Notes: generated from the letters alone by a model not told the origin. A stretch of DNA of 64,000 nt from a virus (IMGVR_UViG_3300035681_000001:125764-189763); one strand, 5' to 3'; counted from the first letter of the stretch, positions 85-28,498 are shown. Numbers and translations: made by a program.

Positions 85-110
85 AAGCCCCCGGAAACGG
101 GGGCTTTTTT
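85..110 (+). terminator. Intrinsic terminator T1
   Basis: AAGCCCCCG-GAAA-CGGGGGCTT followed by a T-tract. Confidence 0.9.
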
Positions 111-3278: not shown

Positions 3279-3304
3279 AAGCCCCCTTAACCGGGGGCTT
3301 TTTT
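3279..3304 (+). terminator. Intrinsic terminator T5
   Basis: AAGCCCCC-TTAACC-GGGGGCTT-TTTT. Confidence 0.9.
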
Positions 3305-3890: not shown

Positions 3891-4067
3891 TCTCTCAGCG
3901 CCGGCCGGACAGGCGCTATACAAATTAGATCACACCTACTAGTAGGGCCGGCAGCTGTGTTAAGGGACTATGAAATGAGTTACCTAGACAGTCCAGCTAC
4001 AAGTCTTGCACGTGCTAGTGCAAGACTTGAAACACTCACCCAACCCCCTCAACTCACCAACCCCCTC

Positions 4068-7000
4068 ATGAACACCGCCACCACAGCAAAAAACAAAGAA
4101 AACCAAAAAGGTAACGAAAAGACCATGCCCCAAGTGGTATTCAAGTTCTACCACCACGAGGTTAATCCAGAAGCCACCAAAGTGGCAATTCTGGCGCCAG
4201 GCCATGCTGCTGGTCCGGTGAACGCTAATGTGCCAGTTAACTTTGATACCGGCCACCTGGACAAGGCATGGGATACCATGAACCTACAAGGGGTCAACCG
4301 CCGTATTGACTGGCAAGGTACTCGCCTGGGTGCTGGATCTGCTCAGTTCCGCGAAACTGACGGTAGTTTTAGTCCGGTAGTGTGGTCCTCGACACCCCGC
4401 ACACGTAACTTGCGTGCGCCGGTGCAACTACTGTTGGCAACTTTAGTGGGAGGTCAACCTGATTGGGTAACGGGTGCGGTACCTTCTGGAAACGATGCTG
4501 CTATTCGGCAGCACGTAGCGGCAGCTATAGCTGCAGGTAAGTCACATGACTACTCGCAACACGGCTTCAGTTTGGAAGCCTACGTGTCTTTGAGTGAGAT
4601 CCTAGCTCAACCTGGAGCTATACACCCTGTAACTGGAGCACCTACCGGGCGGCATTGGTTTGGTGTAATAGGTCAAGTTTACTCCATGGATACTTGTACC
4701 ACTGGCGGTGCAGTACAAACGCGCTACAACTGTAGTGCATTTGATTTGTATTACTTGCCAGAGCCTGAATTCGGGCACAGTTCTTTAACACCACTCGACC
4801 CTTACGGTAAGTTAAATTTGTACGAGTCTTTGACTTACGTACCCGAAGCCAAGGTGCTGCCCACTACTACGGTGGTGCTGCCTGCCGTACCTACGGCAGT
4901 ACCTACTGCCGTACCTACTGCCGTAGGTAGTACCACAGTGTCAACTGCTGACACGCGTCGGTACTGGAATAGCTTTGGTATTCACGGTCTGCAGGTGCAG
5001 GAAATAACAGTAGATTCAGTAGTCCACGACTTTGATCTGATCAATAATTTTGAGGGCTGGAGTGAAATCCAATCTTTATTCCGTCTAGACGGCAGCGCGG
5101 CAGCTGCTGCAGTAACCGTTGCTGATGCAGCGCGGTATTGGGTGTCCAAGAAGATGTATGGGAGTTACCAAAAAATAGGCGACCTAGCAGCCTACGAATG
5201 GACTGTTGCAGACTTGAAAGACTTGATCGAAATCATTGTAAAAGTGGGTACCAGCCGTGGCCTTGACGCTGACCACTTACCCTGTTGGTCTGGTGAGATG
5301 CTGCAGTTTGGGGCCGGCGGTCCTGCCTTTAAGGTGCTAGATAAGCGTATATATGACTACCGTGGGCGGTTGTTGCAAAACGTAGTAGAGCTAAAGGTTA
5401 GCTCCCACGTAAACGAATCAGGTCGGATGGAGTATACCCTAGATGGTCTCCAGCAGGTCTCCAGTGCTACCCAGCTGCTTAAGTTGGTGTATTTCGGCTA
5501 CTTGCCGCTATTAGCTCAGTCCATTACACAAGTAATGGACGCACTACCTGCAAACTTTAGTGAGTTTTGTAGGAATGCCTGGGTAGGAGCTAACCTAGTT
5601 AGTTGGTCGAAAGACCAAGTACTAGAACAAAACTCCGCCGCACGGCTGCGGATGGATAACTGCTATCCGATGACTATACGTCAGCCATATAGCCCGTTGA
5701 GCGGATCCTATTGGGTTCGCCTTAACGAAGACGGCCGCTTTGCGGCTAACTTAGTTAGCCACTACGAGAAACAAATCCGGTACTCCTCCAAAGAGTGTTC
5801 GGATTTGTTTAAAGAAGCCATTCGAGTAGCTTACCGTGAAGGTGGTCTAGACTACCGCTTTGACAAAAAGCTGTTAGTTGGTGGTGGCTTAGGTGCTGTA
5901 AACTGCCGGCTGTTGGCAGCTAATGACCCTGCAGCTTTTGCTGCTTTGCAGGCTAAGTTTGGGGTTACTGAGAGCTCAGTGCTATCTGGCACCCTGAAAC
6001 TAGCTAAGGGTCTAAAGCGGCTGTTTTTGTCAATGGCACAATCAGTGCCTGTCAAAGGTGCACTCCCAGCTGGGTTCTTGTTTAGAGGCCAAGAGTCTCC
6101 TGTGGAAGGGTTTTTGGCAGCAGTAGCATTAGCACCTACTGTGGTGTTTACACCCGGTATGTCTGCCAGCGTAGGTGCTAAACCTGTAGCTGAAGTACGT
6201 AAGACCGTTAGGAATTACGTATTGCACTCTTTTGGCACTGAACCTGAGTTCTTGATGGGCTTAGGGTGTGCTATCAAGCCTAACAACGTAGTTACTGAAA
6301 CTACGCTGGGGATCACCCGTTATACGCTGGTAAGACCCACACCCATCAAGCCTAATGATTTACTGATACAAGTCGCTAACCCTAGTGGCTCAGTAAATGA
6401 TGTAGTAAACACCTCTACATTTGAGGGTGATCTACAGTGGCTGGAATGGCAAGTCGTTCCTAGTATGCTGCCAGGGCAGACAGAGCTTAAACTCAGTTGG
6501 GAATTCCTAACTTACGAGAGCGATATGAAAGCTCGCTCGATTGCTAAAGCGCTGCTGGTAGACGTTAATCCAGACGTAATATTCGCTCATAATAAAGACC
6601 TAGGTGATGTAGACATCATCCACTTCCAAGACTCTTTGAAGGTGGATTTGTGGTGGTCTTACCTGATGTGTGCTGGGACTACCTTACGTTACAACTGGGA
6701 TAAGCCTGAAGTAGCAGAACTCCGCCGGTTGGCGGTAGCCATTAACTCTAGGTTTGGGTTTGCAGCCTTTCAAGGCATACTAATAGACCCCGTGCATATA
6801 GCACTAGGTCACTACGACGCGTTCCAAGCTGAGTTCCGTAGGCTTTTCAGTCGGCCATTGTGGTTTAAGTTCGCTCAACTAGCCGAGTTCGGGCGTTTGT
6901 TATATGACATGCACCAGTCAGACCAATACGAACGGGTGGACTTGGGTGACGGTTACGAAAGTTACGTCACTAAAGGTGCTGACCCTAACGCACCAGACAC

Positions 7001-10000
7001 CAACATCACCTCTTTTGTGGTGGAGTCCGGTACCGTCACCGAAATCTGGCAGCGCGGGATGTGTCTAGTAGGCACTGAAACCTGCCCGGTTTATAACGTG
7101 GAACTCTTCGAGTCTACTACACCTAAAGAAAACGTAGGTGAGTCCTGGCAGTTCCCTTCAGAGCTGCGTGCACTGCAGTCCATCACCAGCAATGGTGTAA
7201 ACCCTAAAGCGTTGGATGAGCTCACCAACACGATAAAAGCAGACATCCTGCCTAATTTGGCTATGGCTAAAATCCTGGAAGGGATGGCTAGCGGTAGTCT
7301 ACTCGGAGGTAAGCGCACCATAGCAGTAGAAGCTGCAGCCGACGGGCACTACCAAGTATCTACTGCAGTGCACGCCCGGTTGCAGCAAATAGTAGCAGAA
7401 CTAGGTGTAAACCTAGCCGCACCCGCAGAAGCTTTTGAAAAGCTGTCTGTAAGACTAAAAGACGTAGTCTTTACCTTTAAGGTGTCTGGCAAAGAGACCA
7501 GCATTTGGCTTCCTGCATTGTGGGAACTCAATAAGCTGCGTTCTACCAACGAGTCTGGGCAAACTTTGTCCAGTGTGTTCTACCGTTATTTCTTAGTGCC
7601 GCTGTGTCTCAACAACCACGTTGAAGCTGCAGTAGTAATAAGACTTCGCGGTCAGCTTAGTTCGTTGTTGTACTCTAGCGAAACACCTAAGCTGCTGAAA
7701 GGCCGCACTAAAATAGGTGGTCGCCGTGTAGGTTTACCTTGTATCCCCATAAGTGAAACTTGGGTGTTGTATTCAGATGACCCGAGTTCTGAGTACCAAA
7801 ACGCACTGCAGTATTGCCGGCGTGCATCGTTAAACCTAGAAATAGGCCTTAACGACCACTTGGTCGGTTACAACTCACGTGCACCACTAGCAGCTGGCTG
7901 GTTGTCTAAACTGCGTGTGATTACACCTGCAGAAAACACCAGTAACTATTGGCAACTGAGCCCTTACTATTTGGGTATCAGTCCAGTAGCGCTGTACATA
8001 GACGGTGGTGATTGTGACGGTGACTCAGGCTATTGGGCTGAACAAGGACCTGAGTTTGAGAGTGAAATCCTGGACTACCAAACCGTTATAAATATCCGCA
8101 ATGCGGGTATGGATGGCGACTGTCGGTATACAGGTAGTTACGCTTACGCGCACTACACGCGTAAGGATTGGGCTAAAGCTACCGTAACTATGTCTTCGGG
8201 AGTTATCAGTGGGTGTGTAATGACAGAAGAGCAGTATTGCTCTTATAACGTCGGTGCACACATCGTACAACACGAAGCTGTCGGGTCCAGCTATAAGCTG
8301 TACATGCTAGGTGAACACTTGATTGACTGTGCTCAAGCTTATGAAAAACTAGGCATTGAGTGTGAGTTGTTGAAGCCCTTTATGGGTGCTCTAGCACCTA
8401 GTTTGGTGCTGATACTGGCAGAAATCTACGAGACTATTCTCGGCGGTTTTACTCCAGAAGCACTGGAGTTGTTTGAAAGCTACCTCAAACCGGCTATCAA
8501 ACAAGGTAAGCCTATCGCACTTAAGCAGCTTACTGATTTTCGTAAGTTGCTGGAGCGCTTTGGAGCTAACTCTTTAAGAGCTGAGGAAATCCTAAAGTTG
8601 ATCAATGTGATCTCTTTAGTAGCTGCCAGTGAAGTCAACGGGTATCTGTCCCGTGAATACACTGGTTGGGATGGCCTAGCTTTAAGTGCAGCTCATGTTG
8701 TATTCGAGCTGGGTCGCGGTCGCTTTCACGGTATGTCAGCCTTTACTAAAGGTCAAATGCCTCAAACGCGTCAAGCGTTAGGGCAAAAAGCCGCACTAGT
8801 TAAGTTCTACGAACTGCTGCTAGGTGGACTGCAGACTAACCGTGAGTTGTACCACCGCTTATCGGAGACTTCTTCAGTAATAGGTTGCGGTAGGGTGCTG
8901 TTCAAGCACCTGCACGTAGAACTCGGGTTGATTAGTTCTAATTATCCCTGGTTGCGTCCAAACCTAACAGAACTGCAATGGCTTCCAGAAGTCTTTGAGC
9001 AGTTTAAGTGCTGTCAGCTTGCACCAGCTACTACCGAACTTACTGAGACTACAACCGAAATTACAGTTGAAGCTACTACTGTAGCTACACCTGAACCTAC
9101 TACTGCTACTACTACTAAACCTATTACAGTTCAAGTTACACCGGAACCTACGTCAGCCGCACTACTTGAAACACTAAAGAAAAGTGTTTTATTTGAGCTT
9201 TGTGCTGAGCGTGGTCTTACAGTAGCCAAAAAAGCTACCAAAGAGCAGTTGGTAAGCGCTTTACTAACTGACCCTAACGGACCACCCTCAGAGGCTTTAG
9301 TTATTGAGGTTTCACAAGACCCGGCAACTAAAGCTCTGAAGCAACGTATTGCTGAACTAGAAGCTCAAGTTGCCCAACTGGAGGCTCAAGTTACGCAAGA
9401 CCCAGAAGATCCTGAAGAGCCACTCGCTGTAGTGTCTAAACCTAAACCGGACCCCAAACCTGATTCAGGTGCTGGGACAAGCGAACCCACCACACCCATT
9501 GCACCCGCTACCATGTCCGCTACATCAACGGCAGTCAACGTACCTGCAGGTATGCCGGCTGACCTAACACCTTCTCAGATTAGAGCGTTTGAGTTGTTTC
9601 AACAAGGCCACAATTTGGTCATCACTGGAGCAGCAGGTACAGGTAAAACCTACCTTAGTAACTTGCTTAGGGAATACGCCCTTAAGAAAAACTACAAACT
9701 AGTAGTAGTAGGTTCCACAGGCACTTCGGTACTAAATATCAAAGGTGACGGCACCCTTAACTCCGTATTTGGGTTGGGTCTAGGTTTTAGTGGTAAACGC
9801 CCTTCGGGGCTAGAGGCCGACAGTTTACTAGCTGCTTCCAGAAGATCCCAGATTTGTAACGAGTACTTAGCGCTTACTGATGAAGCTGGTTTGATAATAC
9901 TGGTAGACGAAGTAAGCATGGTAGATACTAAACTAGCTCGCCTAACGTGGGATATCACAGCACTACAAAACCACCCTACTCAGTGGGTGTTGATAGGCGA

Positions 10001-10916
10001 TCCAGGACAGTGTACTCCTCCAGGAGGAGAGCTGTTCTTTAAGGATTCTACGTTGGACTATGAAGACTACACTGAACCGTATGAGTCTTTGCTAAAAATC
10101 GGTGATTTTAAATGCGTAGCCTTAAAAGAAGTCGTACGTCAAGCTAACGATCCTGCTTTTTTAGCAGATCTAAACGACTTGCGAGTAGGTAAGACCCCAG
10201 GTTTAGTACTAAGAGAGCGCTTTGTGGCGTCTATTAAAGGATTACCGGAGCAAGCTATACACGCTTATTACAACAACGCAGACGTTGCTTTACACAACCG
10301 TAAGGGTACTGAACAACTTATTGCTGCCGGTGCTGAGTCTAGGGTATACCATGCCACGGTAAGAAAAATAAGTTCTGGGGCTCCTGATTGGCCCGCACAA
10401 TTCAGCCCTATTGAGCCTCAAATGACACTGGCTATTGGTATGCCAGTAATGGTACGTAAGAACCTAAAAGCAGCAGATAGAACTTTACTAGCGTCTAACG
10501 GCACCACTGGTGTGGTAATAAAACTAAATCCAGATTCAGTGGTGCTAAAACTGAAAAACGGTAAAACTATCACTATCTCCCAACAAGAACTAGACGGCCC
10601 TAAAGACGGTAAAGGTCGTGATCTAGGTAAATACAAACAACTGCCCTTGCACCCAGCGTTTGCCATTACCGGGCATAAGCTGCAAGGTCTAACCCTAGAC
10701 GAACCTTTGGTGGTACACCTCTACCAAAGCGGCAGGTACGGTCAAAGAGCAATCAATACTGCAGGCTGGTTGTACGTAGTATGCTCCAGAGTTACAGAAG
10801 CTCGACATTTATACTTTGCAGTAGGAGATGCTGATCCAACCGTAGTGTTTAATTGGTTCCTGAGTGGCAACCGAGTTGATCAGTCAGCGCTGGAATGGCT
10901 TCAGAGCCTGGAATAA
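4068..10916 (+). CDS. Single-chain two-barrel RNA polymerase fused to a Pif1/RecD-like SF1B helicase
   Basis: MKARSIAK...DVDII (6525-6620), LLKGRTKIGGRRV (7692-7730), NSRAP (7872-7886), DCDGD (8010-8024); helicase GAAGTGKT (9627-9650), DEVSM (9906-9920), GDPGQ, VVRQ, AITGHKLQG, YVVCSR. Helicase call is near certain; the polymerase call is motif-based. The start could also be 4125. Confidence 0.75.
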   Translation: MNTATTAKNKENQKGNEKTMPQVVFKFYHHEVNPEATKVAILAPGHAAGPVNANVPVNFDTGHLDKAWDTMNLQGVNRRIDWQGTRLGAGSAQFRETDGSFSPVVWSSTPRTRNLRAPVQLLLATLVGGQPDWVTGAVPSGNDAAIRQHVAAAIAAGKSHDYSQHGFSLEAYVSLSEILAQPGAIHPVTGAPTGRHWFGVIGQVYSMDTCTTGGAVQTRYNCSAFDLYYLPEPEFGHSSLTPLDPYGKLNLYESLTYVPEAKVLPTTTVVLPAVPTAVPTAVPTAVGSTTVSTADTRRYWNSFGIHGLQVQEITVDSVVHDFDLINNFEGWSEIQSLFRLDGSAAAAAVTVADAARYWVSKKMYGSYQKIGDLAAYEWTVADLKDLIEIIVKVGTSRGLDADHLPCWSGEMLQFGAGGPAFKVLDKRIYDYRGRLLQNVVELKVSSHVNESGRMEYTLDGLQQVSSATQLLKLVYFGYLPLLAQSITQVMDALPANFSEFCRNAWVGANLVSWSKDQVLEQNSAARLRMDNCYPMTIRQPYSPLSGSYWVRLNEDGRFAANLVSHYEKQIRYSSKECSDLFKEAIRVAYREGGLDYRFDKKLLVGGGLGAVNCRLLAANDPAAFAALQAKFGVTESSVLSGTLKLAKGLKRLFLSMAQSVPVKGALPAGFLFRGQESPVEGFLAAVALAPTVVFTPGMSASVGAKPVAEVRKTVRNYVLHSFGTEPEFLMGLGCAIKPNNVVTETTLGITRYTLVRPTPIKPNDLLIQVANPSGSVNDVVNTSTFEGDLQWLEWQVVPSMLPGQTELKLSWEFLTYESDMKARSIAKALLVDVNPDVIFAHNKDLGDVDIIHFQDSLKVDLWWSYLMCAGTTLRYNWDKPEVAELRRLAVAINSRFGFAAFQGILIDPVHIALGHYDAFQAEFRRLFSRPLWFKFAQLAEFGRLLYDMHQSDQYERVDLGDGYESYVTKGADPNAPDTNITSFVVESGTVTEIWQRGMCLVGTETCPVYNVELFESTTPKENVGESWQFPSELRALQSITSNGVNPKALDELTNTIKADILPNLAMAKILEGMASGSLLGGKRTIAVEAAADGHYQVSTAVHARLQQIVAELGVNLAAPAEAFEKLSVRLKDVVFTFKVSGKETSIWLPALWELNKLRSTNESGQTLSSVFYRYFLVPLCLNNHVEAAVVIRLRGQLSSLLYSSETPKLLKGRTKIGGRRVGLPCIPISETWVLYSDDPSSEYQNALQYCRRASLNLEIGLNDHLVGYNSRAPLAAGWLSKLRVITPAENTSNYWQLSPYYLGISPVALYIDGGDCDGDSGYWAEQGPEFESEILDYQTVINIRNAGMDGDCRYTGSYAYAHYTRKDWAKATVTMSSGVISGCVMTEEQYCSYNVGAHIVQHEAVGSSYKLYMLGEHLIDCAQAYEKLGIECELLKPFMGALAPSLVLILAEIYETILGGFTPEALELFESYLKPAIKQGKPIALKQLTDFRKLLERFGANSLRAEEILKLINVISLVAASEVNGYLSREYTGWDGLALSAAHVVFELGRGRFHGMSAFTKGQMPQTRQALGQKAALVKFYELLLGGLQTNRELYHRLSETSSVIGCGRVLFKHLHVELGLISSNYPWLRPNLTELQWLPEVFEQFKCCQLAPATTELTETTTEITVEATTVATPEPTTATTTKPITVQVTPEPTSAALLETLKKSVLFELCAERGLTVAKKATKEQLVSALLTDPNGPPSEALVIEVSQDPATKALKQRIAELEAQVAQLEAQVTQDPEDPEEPLAVVSKPKPDPKPDSGAGTSEPTTPIAPATMSATSTAVNVPAGMPADLTPSQIRAFELFQQGHNLVITGAAGTGKTYLSNLLREYALKKNYKLVVVGSTGTSVLNIKGDGTLNSVFGLGLGFSGKRPSGLEADSLLAASRRSQICNEYLALTDEAGLIILVDEVSMVDTKLARLTWDITALQNHPTQWVLIGDPGQCTPPGGELFFKDSTLDYEDYTEPYESLLKIGDFKCVALKEVVRQANDPAFLADLNDLRVGKTPGLVLRERFVASIKGLPEQAIHAYYNNADVALHNRKGTEQLIAAGAESRVYHATVRKISSGAPDWPAQFSPIEPQMTLAIGMPVMVRKNLKAADRTLLASNGTTGVVIKLNPDSVVLKLKNGKTITISQQELDGPKDGKGRDLGKYKQLPLHPAFAITGHKLQGLTLDEPLVVHLYQSGRYGQRAINTAGWLYVVCSRVTEARHLYFAVGDADPTVVFNWFLSGNRVDQSALEWLQSLE

Positions 10917-27283: not shown

Positions 27284-28498
27284 ATGCAATTTTTCACCAC
27301 CAATGGCGTTCCGGTCAAAGCTTGGACTGATGGAGTACCAGTCGAAGACAAAGCTATGCAACAGCTAAATGCTCTCGCTTCGATGCCTTTTGTTTACAAA
27401 CATATTGCCGCAATGCCTGATGTTCACTGGGGACTTGGTGCAACAATAGGCTCCGTAATCGCTACCAAAGGGGCTGTAATTCCTGCCGCCGTTGGCGTTG
27501 ATATTGGCTGCGGCATGTCTGCTCAGCGGACTACATTAACCGCTAGCGATTTGCCTGACGACTTAGGGACGCTCAGGTCTGCCATCGAGGCTGTAATTCC
27601 TCATGGTCGCACAGATAACGGCGGCCCAAATGATCGGGGCGCTTGGGGGAACGCTACCCGTACAGCTGAAGCTGCAATGCAAATACTGCAGCCGGGACTT
27701 GATGGCATTACTTCCAAGCATCAGGCAATTAGCAAGGCAGCTCAACGTGCAGTCTTGCACGCTGGTACGCTCGGAGGCGGCAACCACTTTGTTGAGATTT
27801 GCCTTGACGAAGATCAAAGAGTTTGGATTATGTTGCACAGCGGGAGTCGTGGTGTTGGCAACAGGATTGGCACCTACTTTATCGAGAAAGCTCGTAAAGA
27901 GATGGAGCGATACTTCATCAACCTCCCCGACAAAGACCTTGCATATTTAGTAGACGGTAGTGAGCTGTTTGGCGACTATGTTCAAGCAGTCGGCTGGGCG
28001 CAAGATTACGCCATGGCCAATAGGTCGTTAATGATGGACGCAGCTTTACACGTATTAAAACAAGCTGTGCCGAAACCATTTGCTTGTGACTGCAGTGCAG
28101 TTAACTGTCATCACAACTATGTATCCAGGGAGCGTCATTTTGGCTCTGACGTACTACTTACTCGCAAGGGAGCCGTATCTGCCAAAGAGGGTGAGCTGGG
28201 GATTATTCCTGGCAGTATGGGAGCAAAATCATTTATCGTGAAAGGCAAGGGCAATCGCGAATCATTTTGCTCCTGCTCTCATGGAGCTGGTCGTAAGATG
28301 GGCCGAAATGAAGCCAAGAAGCGTTTTACGATTGAGGATCACATTGCTGCCACTGCCGGCATTGAATGTAGAAAGGATCTCAATGTAATCGACGAAACAC
28401 CGGCAGCATATAAAGATATTGATGCCGTTATGGCGGCACAGGCTGATCTGGTTTCGGTGGTTCACACGCTTAAACAGGTTGTTTGTATTAAAGGGTAA
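27284..28498 (+). CDS. rtcB: RNA ligase RtcB
   Basis: MPDVHWG, GVDIGCG, GTLGGGNHFVE, LHSGSRG, CHHNY, IPGSMG, HGAGR, DETPAAYKDI. Confidence 0.97.
   Translation: MQFFTTNGVPVKAWTDGVPVEDKAMQQLNALASMPFVYKHIAAMPDVHWGLGATIGSVIATKGAVIPAAVGVDIGCGMSAQRTTLTASDLPDDLGTLRSAIEAVIPHGRTDNGGPNDRGAWGNATRTAEAAMQILQPGLDGITSKHQAISKAAQRAVLHAGTLGGGNHFVEICLDEDQRVWIMLHSGSRGVGNRIGTYFIEKARKEMERYFINLPDKDLAYLVDGSELFGDYVQAVGWAQDYAMANRSLMMDAALHVLKQAVPKPFACDCSAVNCHHNYVSRERHFGSDVLLTRKGAVSAKEGELGIIPGSMGAKSFIVKGKGNRESFCSCSHGAGRKMGRNEAKKRFTIEDHIAATAGIECRKDLNVIDETPAAYKDIDAVMAAQADLVSVVHTLKQVVCIKG

Follow-up and report, generated by a model that had tools for sequence, protein, structure and literature searches.

In this study, we analysed a giant gene carried by a viral DNA of 64,000 nucleotides (nt), IMGVR_UViG_3300035681_000001:125764-189763, hereafter the window, which is the terminal 64 kb of a 189,763-bp virus record estimated to be 96% complete. 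Both the list of open reading frames (ORFs) and the translation display a single open frame from a GTG at 3957 to 10916 on the (+) strand, in which a predicted single-chain two-barrel nucleotide polymerase is followed by a predicted helicase of superfamily 1B (SF1B). This bears out the initial annotation, made from the sequence, which had placed both parts in one gene at 4068-10916. The identity of both enzymes, two-barrel polymerase and SF1B helicase, is considered very probable. Three close homologues with 62% identity and lengths of 2,173-2,179 amino acids (aa) were found, and alignment of the N-termini showed that the ATG at 4068 is the first Met of them all. Because all three begin at that Met, ATG 4068 is the likely start codon, predicted to give 2,282 aa. 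Residues are numbered here from GTG 3957 (protein P0001), so that ATG 4068 corresponds to aa 38. The features of the gene are collected in Table 1.

Table 1. Features of the polymerase-helicase gene, with positions counted in the window
Feature	Position (nt)	Strand	Basis or remark
Whole gene	4068..10916	+	2,282 aa from ATG 4068; stop codon 10914-10916; frame open from GTG 3957
N-terminal region, aa 38-631	4068..5849	+	Fold not assigned; conservation limited to closest relatives
Predicted beta/Rpb2-like module with first double-psi beta-barrel, aa ~632-1061	5850..7139	+	Fold alignments, conservation
K858-x-R860-x3-K864, first-barrel basic active-site motif	6528..6548	+	Kept in nearly all of 52 aligned members
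Connector between barrels, aa ~1062-1240, mainly helical	7140..7676	+	Model secondary structure; between beta-like and beta'-like aligned ranges
Predicted beta'/Rpb1-like module with second double-psi beta-barrel (aa ~1249-1379), aa ~1241-1649	7677..8903	+	Fold alignments
G1351-D1352-C-D1354-G1355-D1356, DxDGD metal-binding loop	8007..8024	+	G, D, D, G, D invariant or at least 90% across family
Thr/Pro/Glu-rich linker, aa 1700-1866	9054..9554	+	Comparison with close relatives
Predicted SF1B (Pif1/RecD2/Dda-type) helicase, aa 1867-2319	9555..10913	+	Pfam, PHROG and PDB matches

Polymerase and helicase parts of the protein

The polymerase part was not linked to any known family by sequence methods and is recognisable by structure only. 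Pfam disclosed no polymerase family for the whole protein at E-values up to 1, and residues 1-1700 gave no match in PHROGs or by phmmer against all Protein Data Bank (PDB) sequences. A 23-sequence family profile likewise found no match among all PDB sequences, including those of QDE-1, RDR and gp66, and nothing was found by tblastn of the window core and family members P0030 and P0011 against 50,697 phage records. A word-indexed protein search gave just the three close homologues, and an exhaustive search was required to recover the family, in which a profile of aa 540-1700 from four close sequences was run against 1.84 billion representative proteins. This family comprises 65 metagenomic protein clusters, 47 of them with E-values up to 1e-10, and nearly all are giant proteins of 1,100-4,500 aa. 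In the 10 clusters looked up, the named members were all metagenomic and called 'hypothetical protein', and the count of accessions was 0. The family profile found no paralogue in the phage's own genome.

Conservation was examined in an alignment of 52 family members with 17-66% identity. Residues that are invariant or conserved in at least 90% of the family include K858, R860, K864, D892, K895 and K1245, then R1308, P1310, G1351, D1352, D1354, G1355 and D1356, as well as K681, K684 and R688 (with K687 also, in the 52-member alignment; KxxKxxKR, aa 681-688) and Y1491, E1492, L1495 and G1497 (YExxLGG, aa 1491-1497). This set holds even in members 17-30% identical to the query, and the conservation of the motifs, as judged from the alignment, is far above chance. 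The motifs which the initial annotation had compared with the beta and beta' subunits of RNA polymerase (RNAP) lie where it had placed them: DMKARSIAK at aa 856-864 (nt 6522-6548), with K858, R860 and K864 kept in the family; LLKGRTKIGGRRV at aa 1246-1258 (nt 7692-7730), with K1245 kept; NSRAP at aa 1306-1310 (nt 7872-7886), with R1308 and P1310 kept; and GGDCDGD at aa 1350-1356 (nt 8004-8024), with its G, D, D, G and D kept. The aspartates D1352, D1354 and D1356 are retained in nearly every homologue. The 'DVDII' element that had been counted with the first motif did not hold in the same way, its conservation stopping at close relatives.

An AlphaFold2 model covering aa 540-1700, obtained from a 37-sequence alignment, was confident, with a mean predicted local distance difference test score (pLDDT) of 83.7 and a predicted template modelling score of 0.84, and the polymerase occupies aa ~632-1649 of it. 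When the model was compared with the PDB by Foldseek, all 50 of the 50 matches listed were RNAP beta', beta or Rpb2 chains, the Rpb2/beta matches having a probability of 1.0. In a search independent of Foldseek, in which the model was aligned to about 48,000 representative chains, QDE-1 ranked first (Z 14.0, root-mean-square deviation 6.5, 524 residues over model residues 1-1116), followed by P74-26 gp62 (Z 10.8) and by Rpb1 of Pol II, A190 of Pol I and maize RDR2 (Z 9.5-9.6). Archaeal and vaccinia enzymes and P23-45 gp96 (Z 8.0) came lower, and PolD reached just Z 5.3. Realignment of the best 1,000 Foldseek chains gave the same order (QDE-1 14-14.5, RDR2 11.4, gp64/gp62 10.7-10.8, Rpb1/beta' ~9.5-10), and 254 of these chains score Z 8 or more.

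The double-psi beta-barrel fold that had been expected was thus borne out by the AlphaFold2 model, Foldseek and the independent search alike. Rpa135, bacterial beta and plastid beta align to model residues 93-522, and Rpb1, beta', A190 and vaccinia RNAP to residues 702-1110 (Z 8.2-10.0); designed double-psi beta-barrels align to residues 712-824, that is aa 1251-1363 (Z 7.6). A 42-residue helix, aa 1424-1465 (model residues 885-926), stands at the bridge-helix position. In the ESM Atlas, the nearest clusters combine an Rpb2_6 with an Rpb1_2 domain. With regard to membership in the two-barrel superfamily, the order of a beta-like and then a beta'-like barrel, the DxDGD loop and the Lys/Lys/Arg of the first barrel were all found. 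From the beta-like and beta'-like modules together with the bridge-helix-like helix, the model therefore points to a single-chain two-barrel polymerase of the QDE-1/phage clade, and aa ~632-1649 is predicted to be a QDE-1-like single-chain two-barrel nucleotide polymerase. Both gp66 (6VR4) and SPbeta YonO were absent among the fold-search matches listed, which is not read as exclusion; the further absence of YonO from the Pfam and phmmer matches is no evidence against membership.

The helicase part is recognised by sequence. Pfam matches were above their cut-offs for AAA_30 (3.5e-11; 43.6 bits against 27), PIF1 (1.1e-8; 35.5 against 25.9) and AAA_19 (7.8e-8; 33.0 against 25.1), PHROG 325 (Dda-like helicase) matched at 9.5e-46, and solved Pif1 structures matched at about 1e-14, with 5fhd at 1.3e-14 over aa 1874-2261. 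Walker A, GAAGTGKT, lies at aa 1891-1898 (nt 9627-9650). Together with DEVSM, GDPGQ, VVRQ, GHKLQG and VVCSR, it makes up the Walker A/B motifs and motifs III-VI, which are all present and are invariant in close homologues. The full SF1B helicase suggested earlier is consistent with these matches and intact motifs, and aa 1867-2319 is predicted to be a complete helicase of the Pif1/Dda type. Helicases of SF1B translocate 5' to 3' along single-stranded DNA, a polarity that is assumed here from the family. The C-terminal 450 aa resemble Pif1, RecD2 and T4 Dda over their full length and in all motifs; unlike these proteins, which stand alone or form a subunit of RecBCD, the helicase of this phage is tethered to a polymerase. 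It also resembles the stand-alone Dda-like helicases of many phages, with up to 31% identity. The best match in a cultured phage, that of Microbacterium phage Pumpernickel, is a stand-alone gene, and no polymerase was found near it.

Outside the two enzymes, the N-terminal 570 aa gave no match in Pfam or PHROG and no ESM Atlas feature neighbour, and model residues 1-71 (aa 540-610) have pLDDT below 50. The linker harbors an insertion of about 130 aa that is confined to this phage, the linker of close relatives being 37 aa long. By eye, the insertion displays a SAP/HeH-like DNA-binding stretch and a short coiled coil; the SAP/HeH reading was rejected, with no SAP match and just weak coiled-coil matches in Pfam.

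Coupling of the two enzymes and comparison with known systems

The fusion is not an artefact of assembly, as it is repeated in the three close relatives, each a single ORF from an independent assembly (JGI, SRA and ENA), and in about 36 of the 68 family sequences, in which a helicase profile built from the close proteins located the helicase C-terminal to the GDxDGD core. In fused members the order is always polymerase and then helicase. Five helicase-less members were looked up. Three of them (P0033, P0018 and P0045) have a PIF1/AAA_30 gene 54-91 nt downstream on the same strand; for the remaining two, one contig ends at the gene and the other has two small unrelated genes before it ends. Fused and split forms are interspersed in a tree of the polymerase core, and at least six changes are forced by well-supported branches; the tree was made with FastTree only, and some of the 'unfused' rows may be cut by contig ends. 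Because the fusion recurs, Pif1 genes lie next door and fused and split forms are interspersed, the polymerase-helicase link is conserved within the family, whether the two are encoded in one gene or in two.

Some members carry further domains: P0013 has NADAR and a 2OG-Fe(II) oxygenase between polymerase and helicase, P0009 has DUF4326 in that place, and in P0025 an amidoligase domain precedes the polymerase on the N-terminal side. Add-on domains of this kind are typical of injected polyvalent proteins. None of the four was found by Pfam in the 2,282-aa protein.

With reference to solved structures, QDE-1 and RDR2 (PDB 2J7N, 7Y7P, 5FSW, 7ROZ) are the best matches, extending over about 500-524 residues of the barrels, connector and bridge-helix region, and they share with the predicted polymerase a single chain and a DxDGD loop, without a sigma factor. 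Sequence similarity to QDE-1 and RDR2 is not detectable, and neither the Pfam RdRP profile nor the PDB profile search gave a match. QDE-1 and RDR2 are eukaryotic polymerases of RNA interference (RNAi), whereas the present gene comes from a bacterial virus. The helicase of QDE-1 is a separate RecQ-type protein, whereas the SF1B helicase of this family is fused or next door. QDE-1 works on single-stranded DNA and needs RPA and the DNA helicase QDE-3 (PMC2950127).

Among phage enzymes, P23-45 gp64, P74-26 gp62 and the virion protein gp96 (PDB 8F72, 8F5M, 8H2N) are single-chain two-barrel RNAPs; for gp64 and gp62, 413-418 of about 592 residues align, and the gp96 that scored lower is fused to the tape measure. 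However, they show no sequence match to the present protein, and gp64 has about 600 aa and no helicase, whereas the core described here reaches about 1,000 aa and is accompanied by long additional regions at the N-terminus and in the linker. In P23-45, two phage-encoded two-barrel RNAPs transcribe the pre-early, the early and some of the middle genes, while the late genes are left to host RNAP (PMC10770324).

The crAss-like phi14:2 gp66 (PDB 6VR4) and the giants of Suoliviridae are phage proteins of giant size as well, their two-barrel core resembling that of QDE-1. In vitro, gp66 uses single-stranded or denatured DNA as a template for transcription, but not duplex DNA (bioRxiv 10.1101/2020.03.07.982082). 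No sequence link to gp66 was found by the PDB profile search or by tblastn of three family sequences against the phage records. The crAss-like phages differ in type from this virus, whose contractile tail sheath is related to those of Microcystis and Microcoleus phages only, and the crAss virion RNAP gene lies in or beside the structural block, whereas this gene lies among small early-like genes. The view in the initial annotation that no case with an attached helicase had been described holds for the literature searched, where single-chain phage two-barrel RNAPs (YonO, gp66, gp64/gp96) are described and a helicase fusion is not; it needs qualification, however, as the crAss giants cr50_1 and cr118_1, labelled 'DNA helicase', match the polymerase model weakly in BFVD (E ~5e-4, probability 0.9). 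What is new here is a separate sequence family, without a profile-level link to gp66, in a myovirus lineage and with a systematically conserved helicase partner.

Of viral proteins, ORF65L of MaMV-DC gave the best structural match (Foldseek E 1.7e-16, TM score 0.58 by target). This protein of 1,677 aa and its counterpart gp064 of Ma-LMM01 (1,673 aa) are both named 'hypothetical protein', and both phages belong to the same lineage as this virus, judged by the tail sheath. ORF65L has K-x-R-x3-K at aa 933 and GDADGD at aa 1351, in the same order and spacing; the identity of ORF65L/gp064 to the family is 13%, and RAP and YExxLGG are not recognisable. A weak co-linear match of 20 bits between ORF65L and the family profile appeared in filter-free hmmsearch only, the filtered profile search of MaMV-DC giving none, and no fused or adjacent helicase was found at either locus. 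On the evidence of the model comparison, a distant, helicase-less relative of the polymerase thus appears to sit unrecognised in cultured Microcystis phages, a group (Ma-LMM01, MaMV-DC, MaMV-DH01) that has been said to have no RNA polymerase (PMC9927357). By RNA sequencing, gp054-gp063 form the only early gene cluster of Ma-LMM01 and gp064 falls in a middle class, and the transcriptome was attributed to host sigma-70 transcription for all gene classes (PMC5780444). It was also observed that gp064 is the immediate upstream neighbour of this early cluster, from which a tandem array (6.7 copies of a 42-bp repeat) separates it (Ma-LMM01 AB231700 43811-48832 (-) and 37513-43226 (-); MaMV-DC extract 5225-10258 (-)).

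Genome surroundings

The polymerase-helicase gene heads a same-strand run of about 60 kb of mostly small genes without assigned function; it sits among small non-structural genes, outside the structural block, and a co-oriented small-gene neighbourhood was noticed in every relative examined. At a distance of about 70 kb, the replication set occupies 24-62 kb of the genome on the (+) strand, with a DNA polymerase, a clamp loader, a DnaB-like helicase (PHROG 16, 2.2e-63), a DnaG-type primase (PHROG 47) and UvsX. The genome also encodes a contractile tail sheath, tail fibres, ribonucleotide reductase, an SNF2 helicase and a sigma-70-type factor. The only relatives of the tail sheath among deposited phages, at ~29% identity, are those of the Ma-LMM01 group of Microcystis phages and of one Microcoleus phage. 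A cyanobacterial host may reasonably be inferred.

Upstream of the giant gene, near-identical strong hairpins, AAGCCCCC ... GGGGGCTT, were detected between genes at window positions 85-106, 532-551, 2627-2648 and 3279-3300 (+), each followed by T5-6 and GT. Matches to sigma-70-like promoters are depleted, with 3 found against 12.8 expected from shuffles. The phage sigma-70 factor itself (genome 7696-9618 (+), 640 aa) has about 320 residues separating region 2 (aa 93-144) from region 3 (aa 464-541); by tblastn, other sigma factors match it in two segments that together span roughly half its length, pointing to a large insertion. An RtcB-type RNA ligase gene (PHROG 1075, 3.2e-148) lies inside the small-gene array at window 27284-28498 (+).

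Several other large proteins were observed. A 3,211-aa protein (genome 108854-118489 (+)) adjoins the tail and baseplate genes and harbors GDYDGD at aa 2231-2236, and no further DxDGD occurs in the genome beyond this one and that of the polymerase; a comparable giant of 3,560 aa, with DFDGD, is present in MaMV-DC and Ma-LMM01. This protein may be a second, virion-type polymerase. However, the AlphaFold2 model of its core, from a 7-sequence alignment, has a pLDDT of 41.9, and for this reason no polymerase claim is made for it. A 4,148-aa protein (genome 63328-75774 (-)) has an N-terminal PLD-like domain (PLDc_2, 8.9e-16), with its remainder unassigned, and a PLD-domain protein of Ma-LMM01 matches the polymerase model very weakly (E 0.049, probability 0.14). 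In a 1,236-aa protein (genome 76387-80097 (-)), an intein bearing a LAGLIDADG endonuclease is accompanied by a second domain of Hint type (PT-HINT).

Proposed role of the polymerase-helicase

We favour, at somewhat better than even confidence, the view that the gene encodes a helicase-assisted phage DNA-dependent RNA polymerase, the mechanism being part of this proposal. As predicted from the model, the fold comparisons and conservation, the beta-like barrel contributes K858, R860 and K864, and the beta'-like barrel D1352, D1354 and D1356, followed by the bridge-helix-like helix, and the two enzymes stand on one polypeptide with a flexible linker between them. A sigma factor would not be needed, the protein's own helicase supplying the template. 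The helicase would travel 5' to 3' on the non-template strand, which is the polymerase's direction, and because such movement is co-directional with transcription it could unwind the duplex in front of, or alongside, a polymerase of the class that prefers single-stranded DNA (QDE-1, crAss gp66). Such a mechanism is attractive because of the template preference of gp66 and the precedents of QDE-1/QDE-3 and P23-45. The polymerase-helicase probably transcribes one temporal class of phage genes, with the phage sigma-70 directing the host polymerase to another.

Several points weigh against this proposal. The predicted structure cannot distinguish between the use of ribonucleoside and deoxyribonucleoside triphosphates (NTP/dNTP) or between DNA and RNA templates, and its closest structural relatives are enzymes classed as RNA-dependent. 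No promoter element was identified for this polymerase, and which strand the helicase follows is wholly inferred. Given the phage sigma-70, the host polymerase could in principle perform all transcription, as was concluded from the transcriptome of Ma-LMM01, a member of the nearest cultured lineage (PMC5780444). Lastly, the Ma-LMM01 homologue is helicase-less and expressed in the middle class.

A role in the initiation of replication is unlikely, though it deserves to be weighed. The polymerase would lay an RNA primer or R-loop at the origin and the helicase would open the duplex for the replisome, as a two-barrel analogue of a primase-helicase. Helicase fusions are typical of primases, helicases of the Dda/Pif1 type act in replication and recombination, and the likeness to stand-alone phage helicases noted above fits such a role, while transcription could be covered by the host polymerase with the phage sigma factor. 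However, the phage has its own primase, replicative helicase, DNA polymerase and clamp loader in a separate module, from which this gene stands far off among small early-like genes, and PolD, a two-barrel enzyme that synthesises DNA, is a far weaker match than the RNAPs. Of the two functions offered by the initial annotation, helicase-assisted transcription is therefore favoured over priming: a primase and a replicative helicase are encoded separately in the genome, which weakens the primase-helicase alternative.

It is highly improbable that the protein is an RNA-templated or conflict-related synthase, which would make double-stranded or decoy RNA for counter-defence while its helicase handles RNA-DNA hybrids. 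The nearest structures, QDE-1 and RDR2, and the NADAR, 2OG-Fe(II) oxygenase, DUF4326 and amidoligase domains of larger members, which are typical of conflict systems, would agree with this; yet these domains are absent from the present protein, no bacterial pathway is known to use such products, and QDE-1 is itself a better DNA-dependent enzyme (PMC2950127; bioRxiv 10.1101/2020.03.07.982082). A catalytically dead, polymerase-derived structural or ejection protein that retains the fold is scarcely credible: the protein is very large, giant phage proteins are often virion cargo and the distant relative gp064 is expressed with middle genes, but the catalytic residues of both barrels and the helicase motifs are kept down to 17-20% identity across 65 clusters, which argues for selection on catalysis.

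Returning to helicase-assisted transcription, the observations could tentatively be joined in a broader proposal, which we hold with less than even confidence. The family would be a self-sufficient, sigma-independent transcription machine, in which a QDE-1-like polymerase is obligatorily coupled to a helicase, whether fused to it or encoded next to it; running 5' to 3' along the non-template strand, the helicase would feed the polymerase a single-stranded DNA template. The same logic would recur independently in crAss-like phages and in RNAi (QDE-1/QDE-3), helicase coupling would be ancestral in the polymerase clade, and cyanophages of the Ma-LMM01 type would carry their own RNA polymerase.

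These data add a family of 65 sequence clusters that no database names and extend phage two-barrel polymerases to a cyanophage-like myovirus lineage. The claim that Ma-LMM01, MaMV-DC and MaMV-DH01 lack RNA polymerase is thereby open to re-examination in a culturable harmful-bloom system, and the predicted protein is a natural two-in-one enzyme suited to biochemistry and cryo-electron microscopy. That QDE-1 and RDR2 are so close in structure is relevant to the proposal that the eukaryotic RNAi polymerases originated in phages. As to how single-chain two-barrel RNAPs such as QDE-1 and gp66 start on double-stranded genomes without sigma, coupling to a helicase would provide a testable answer.

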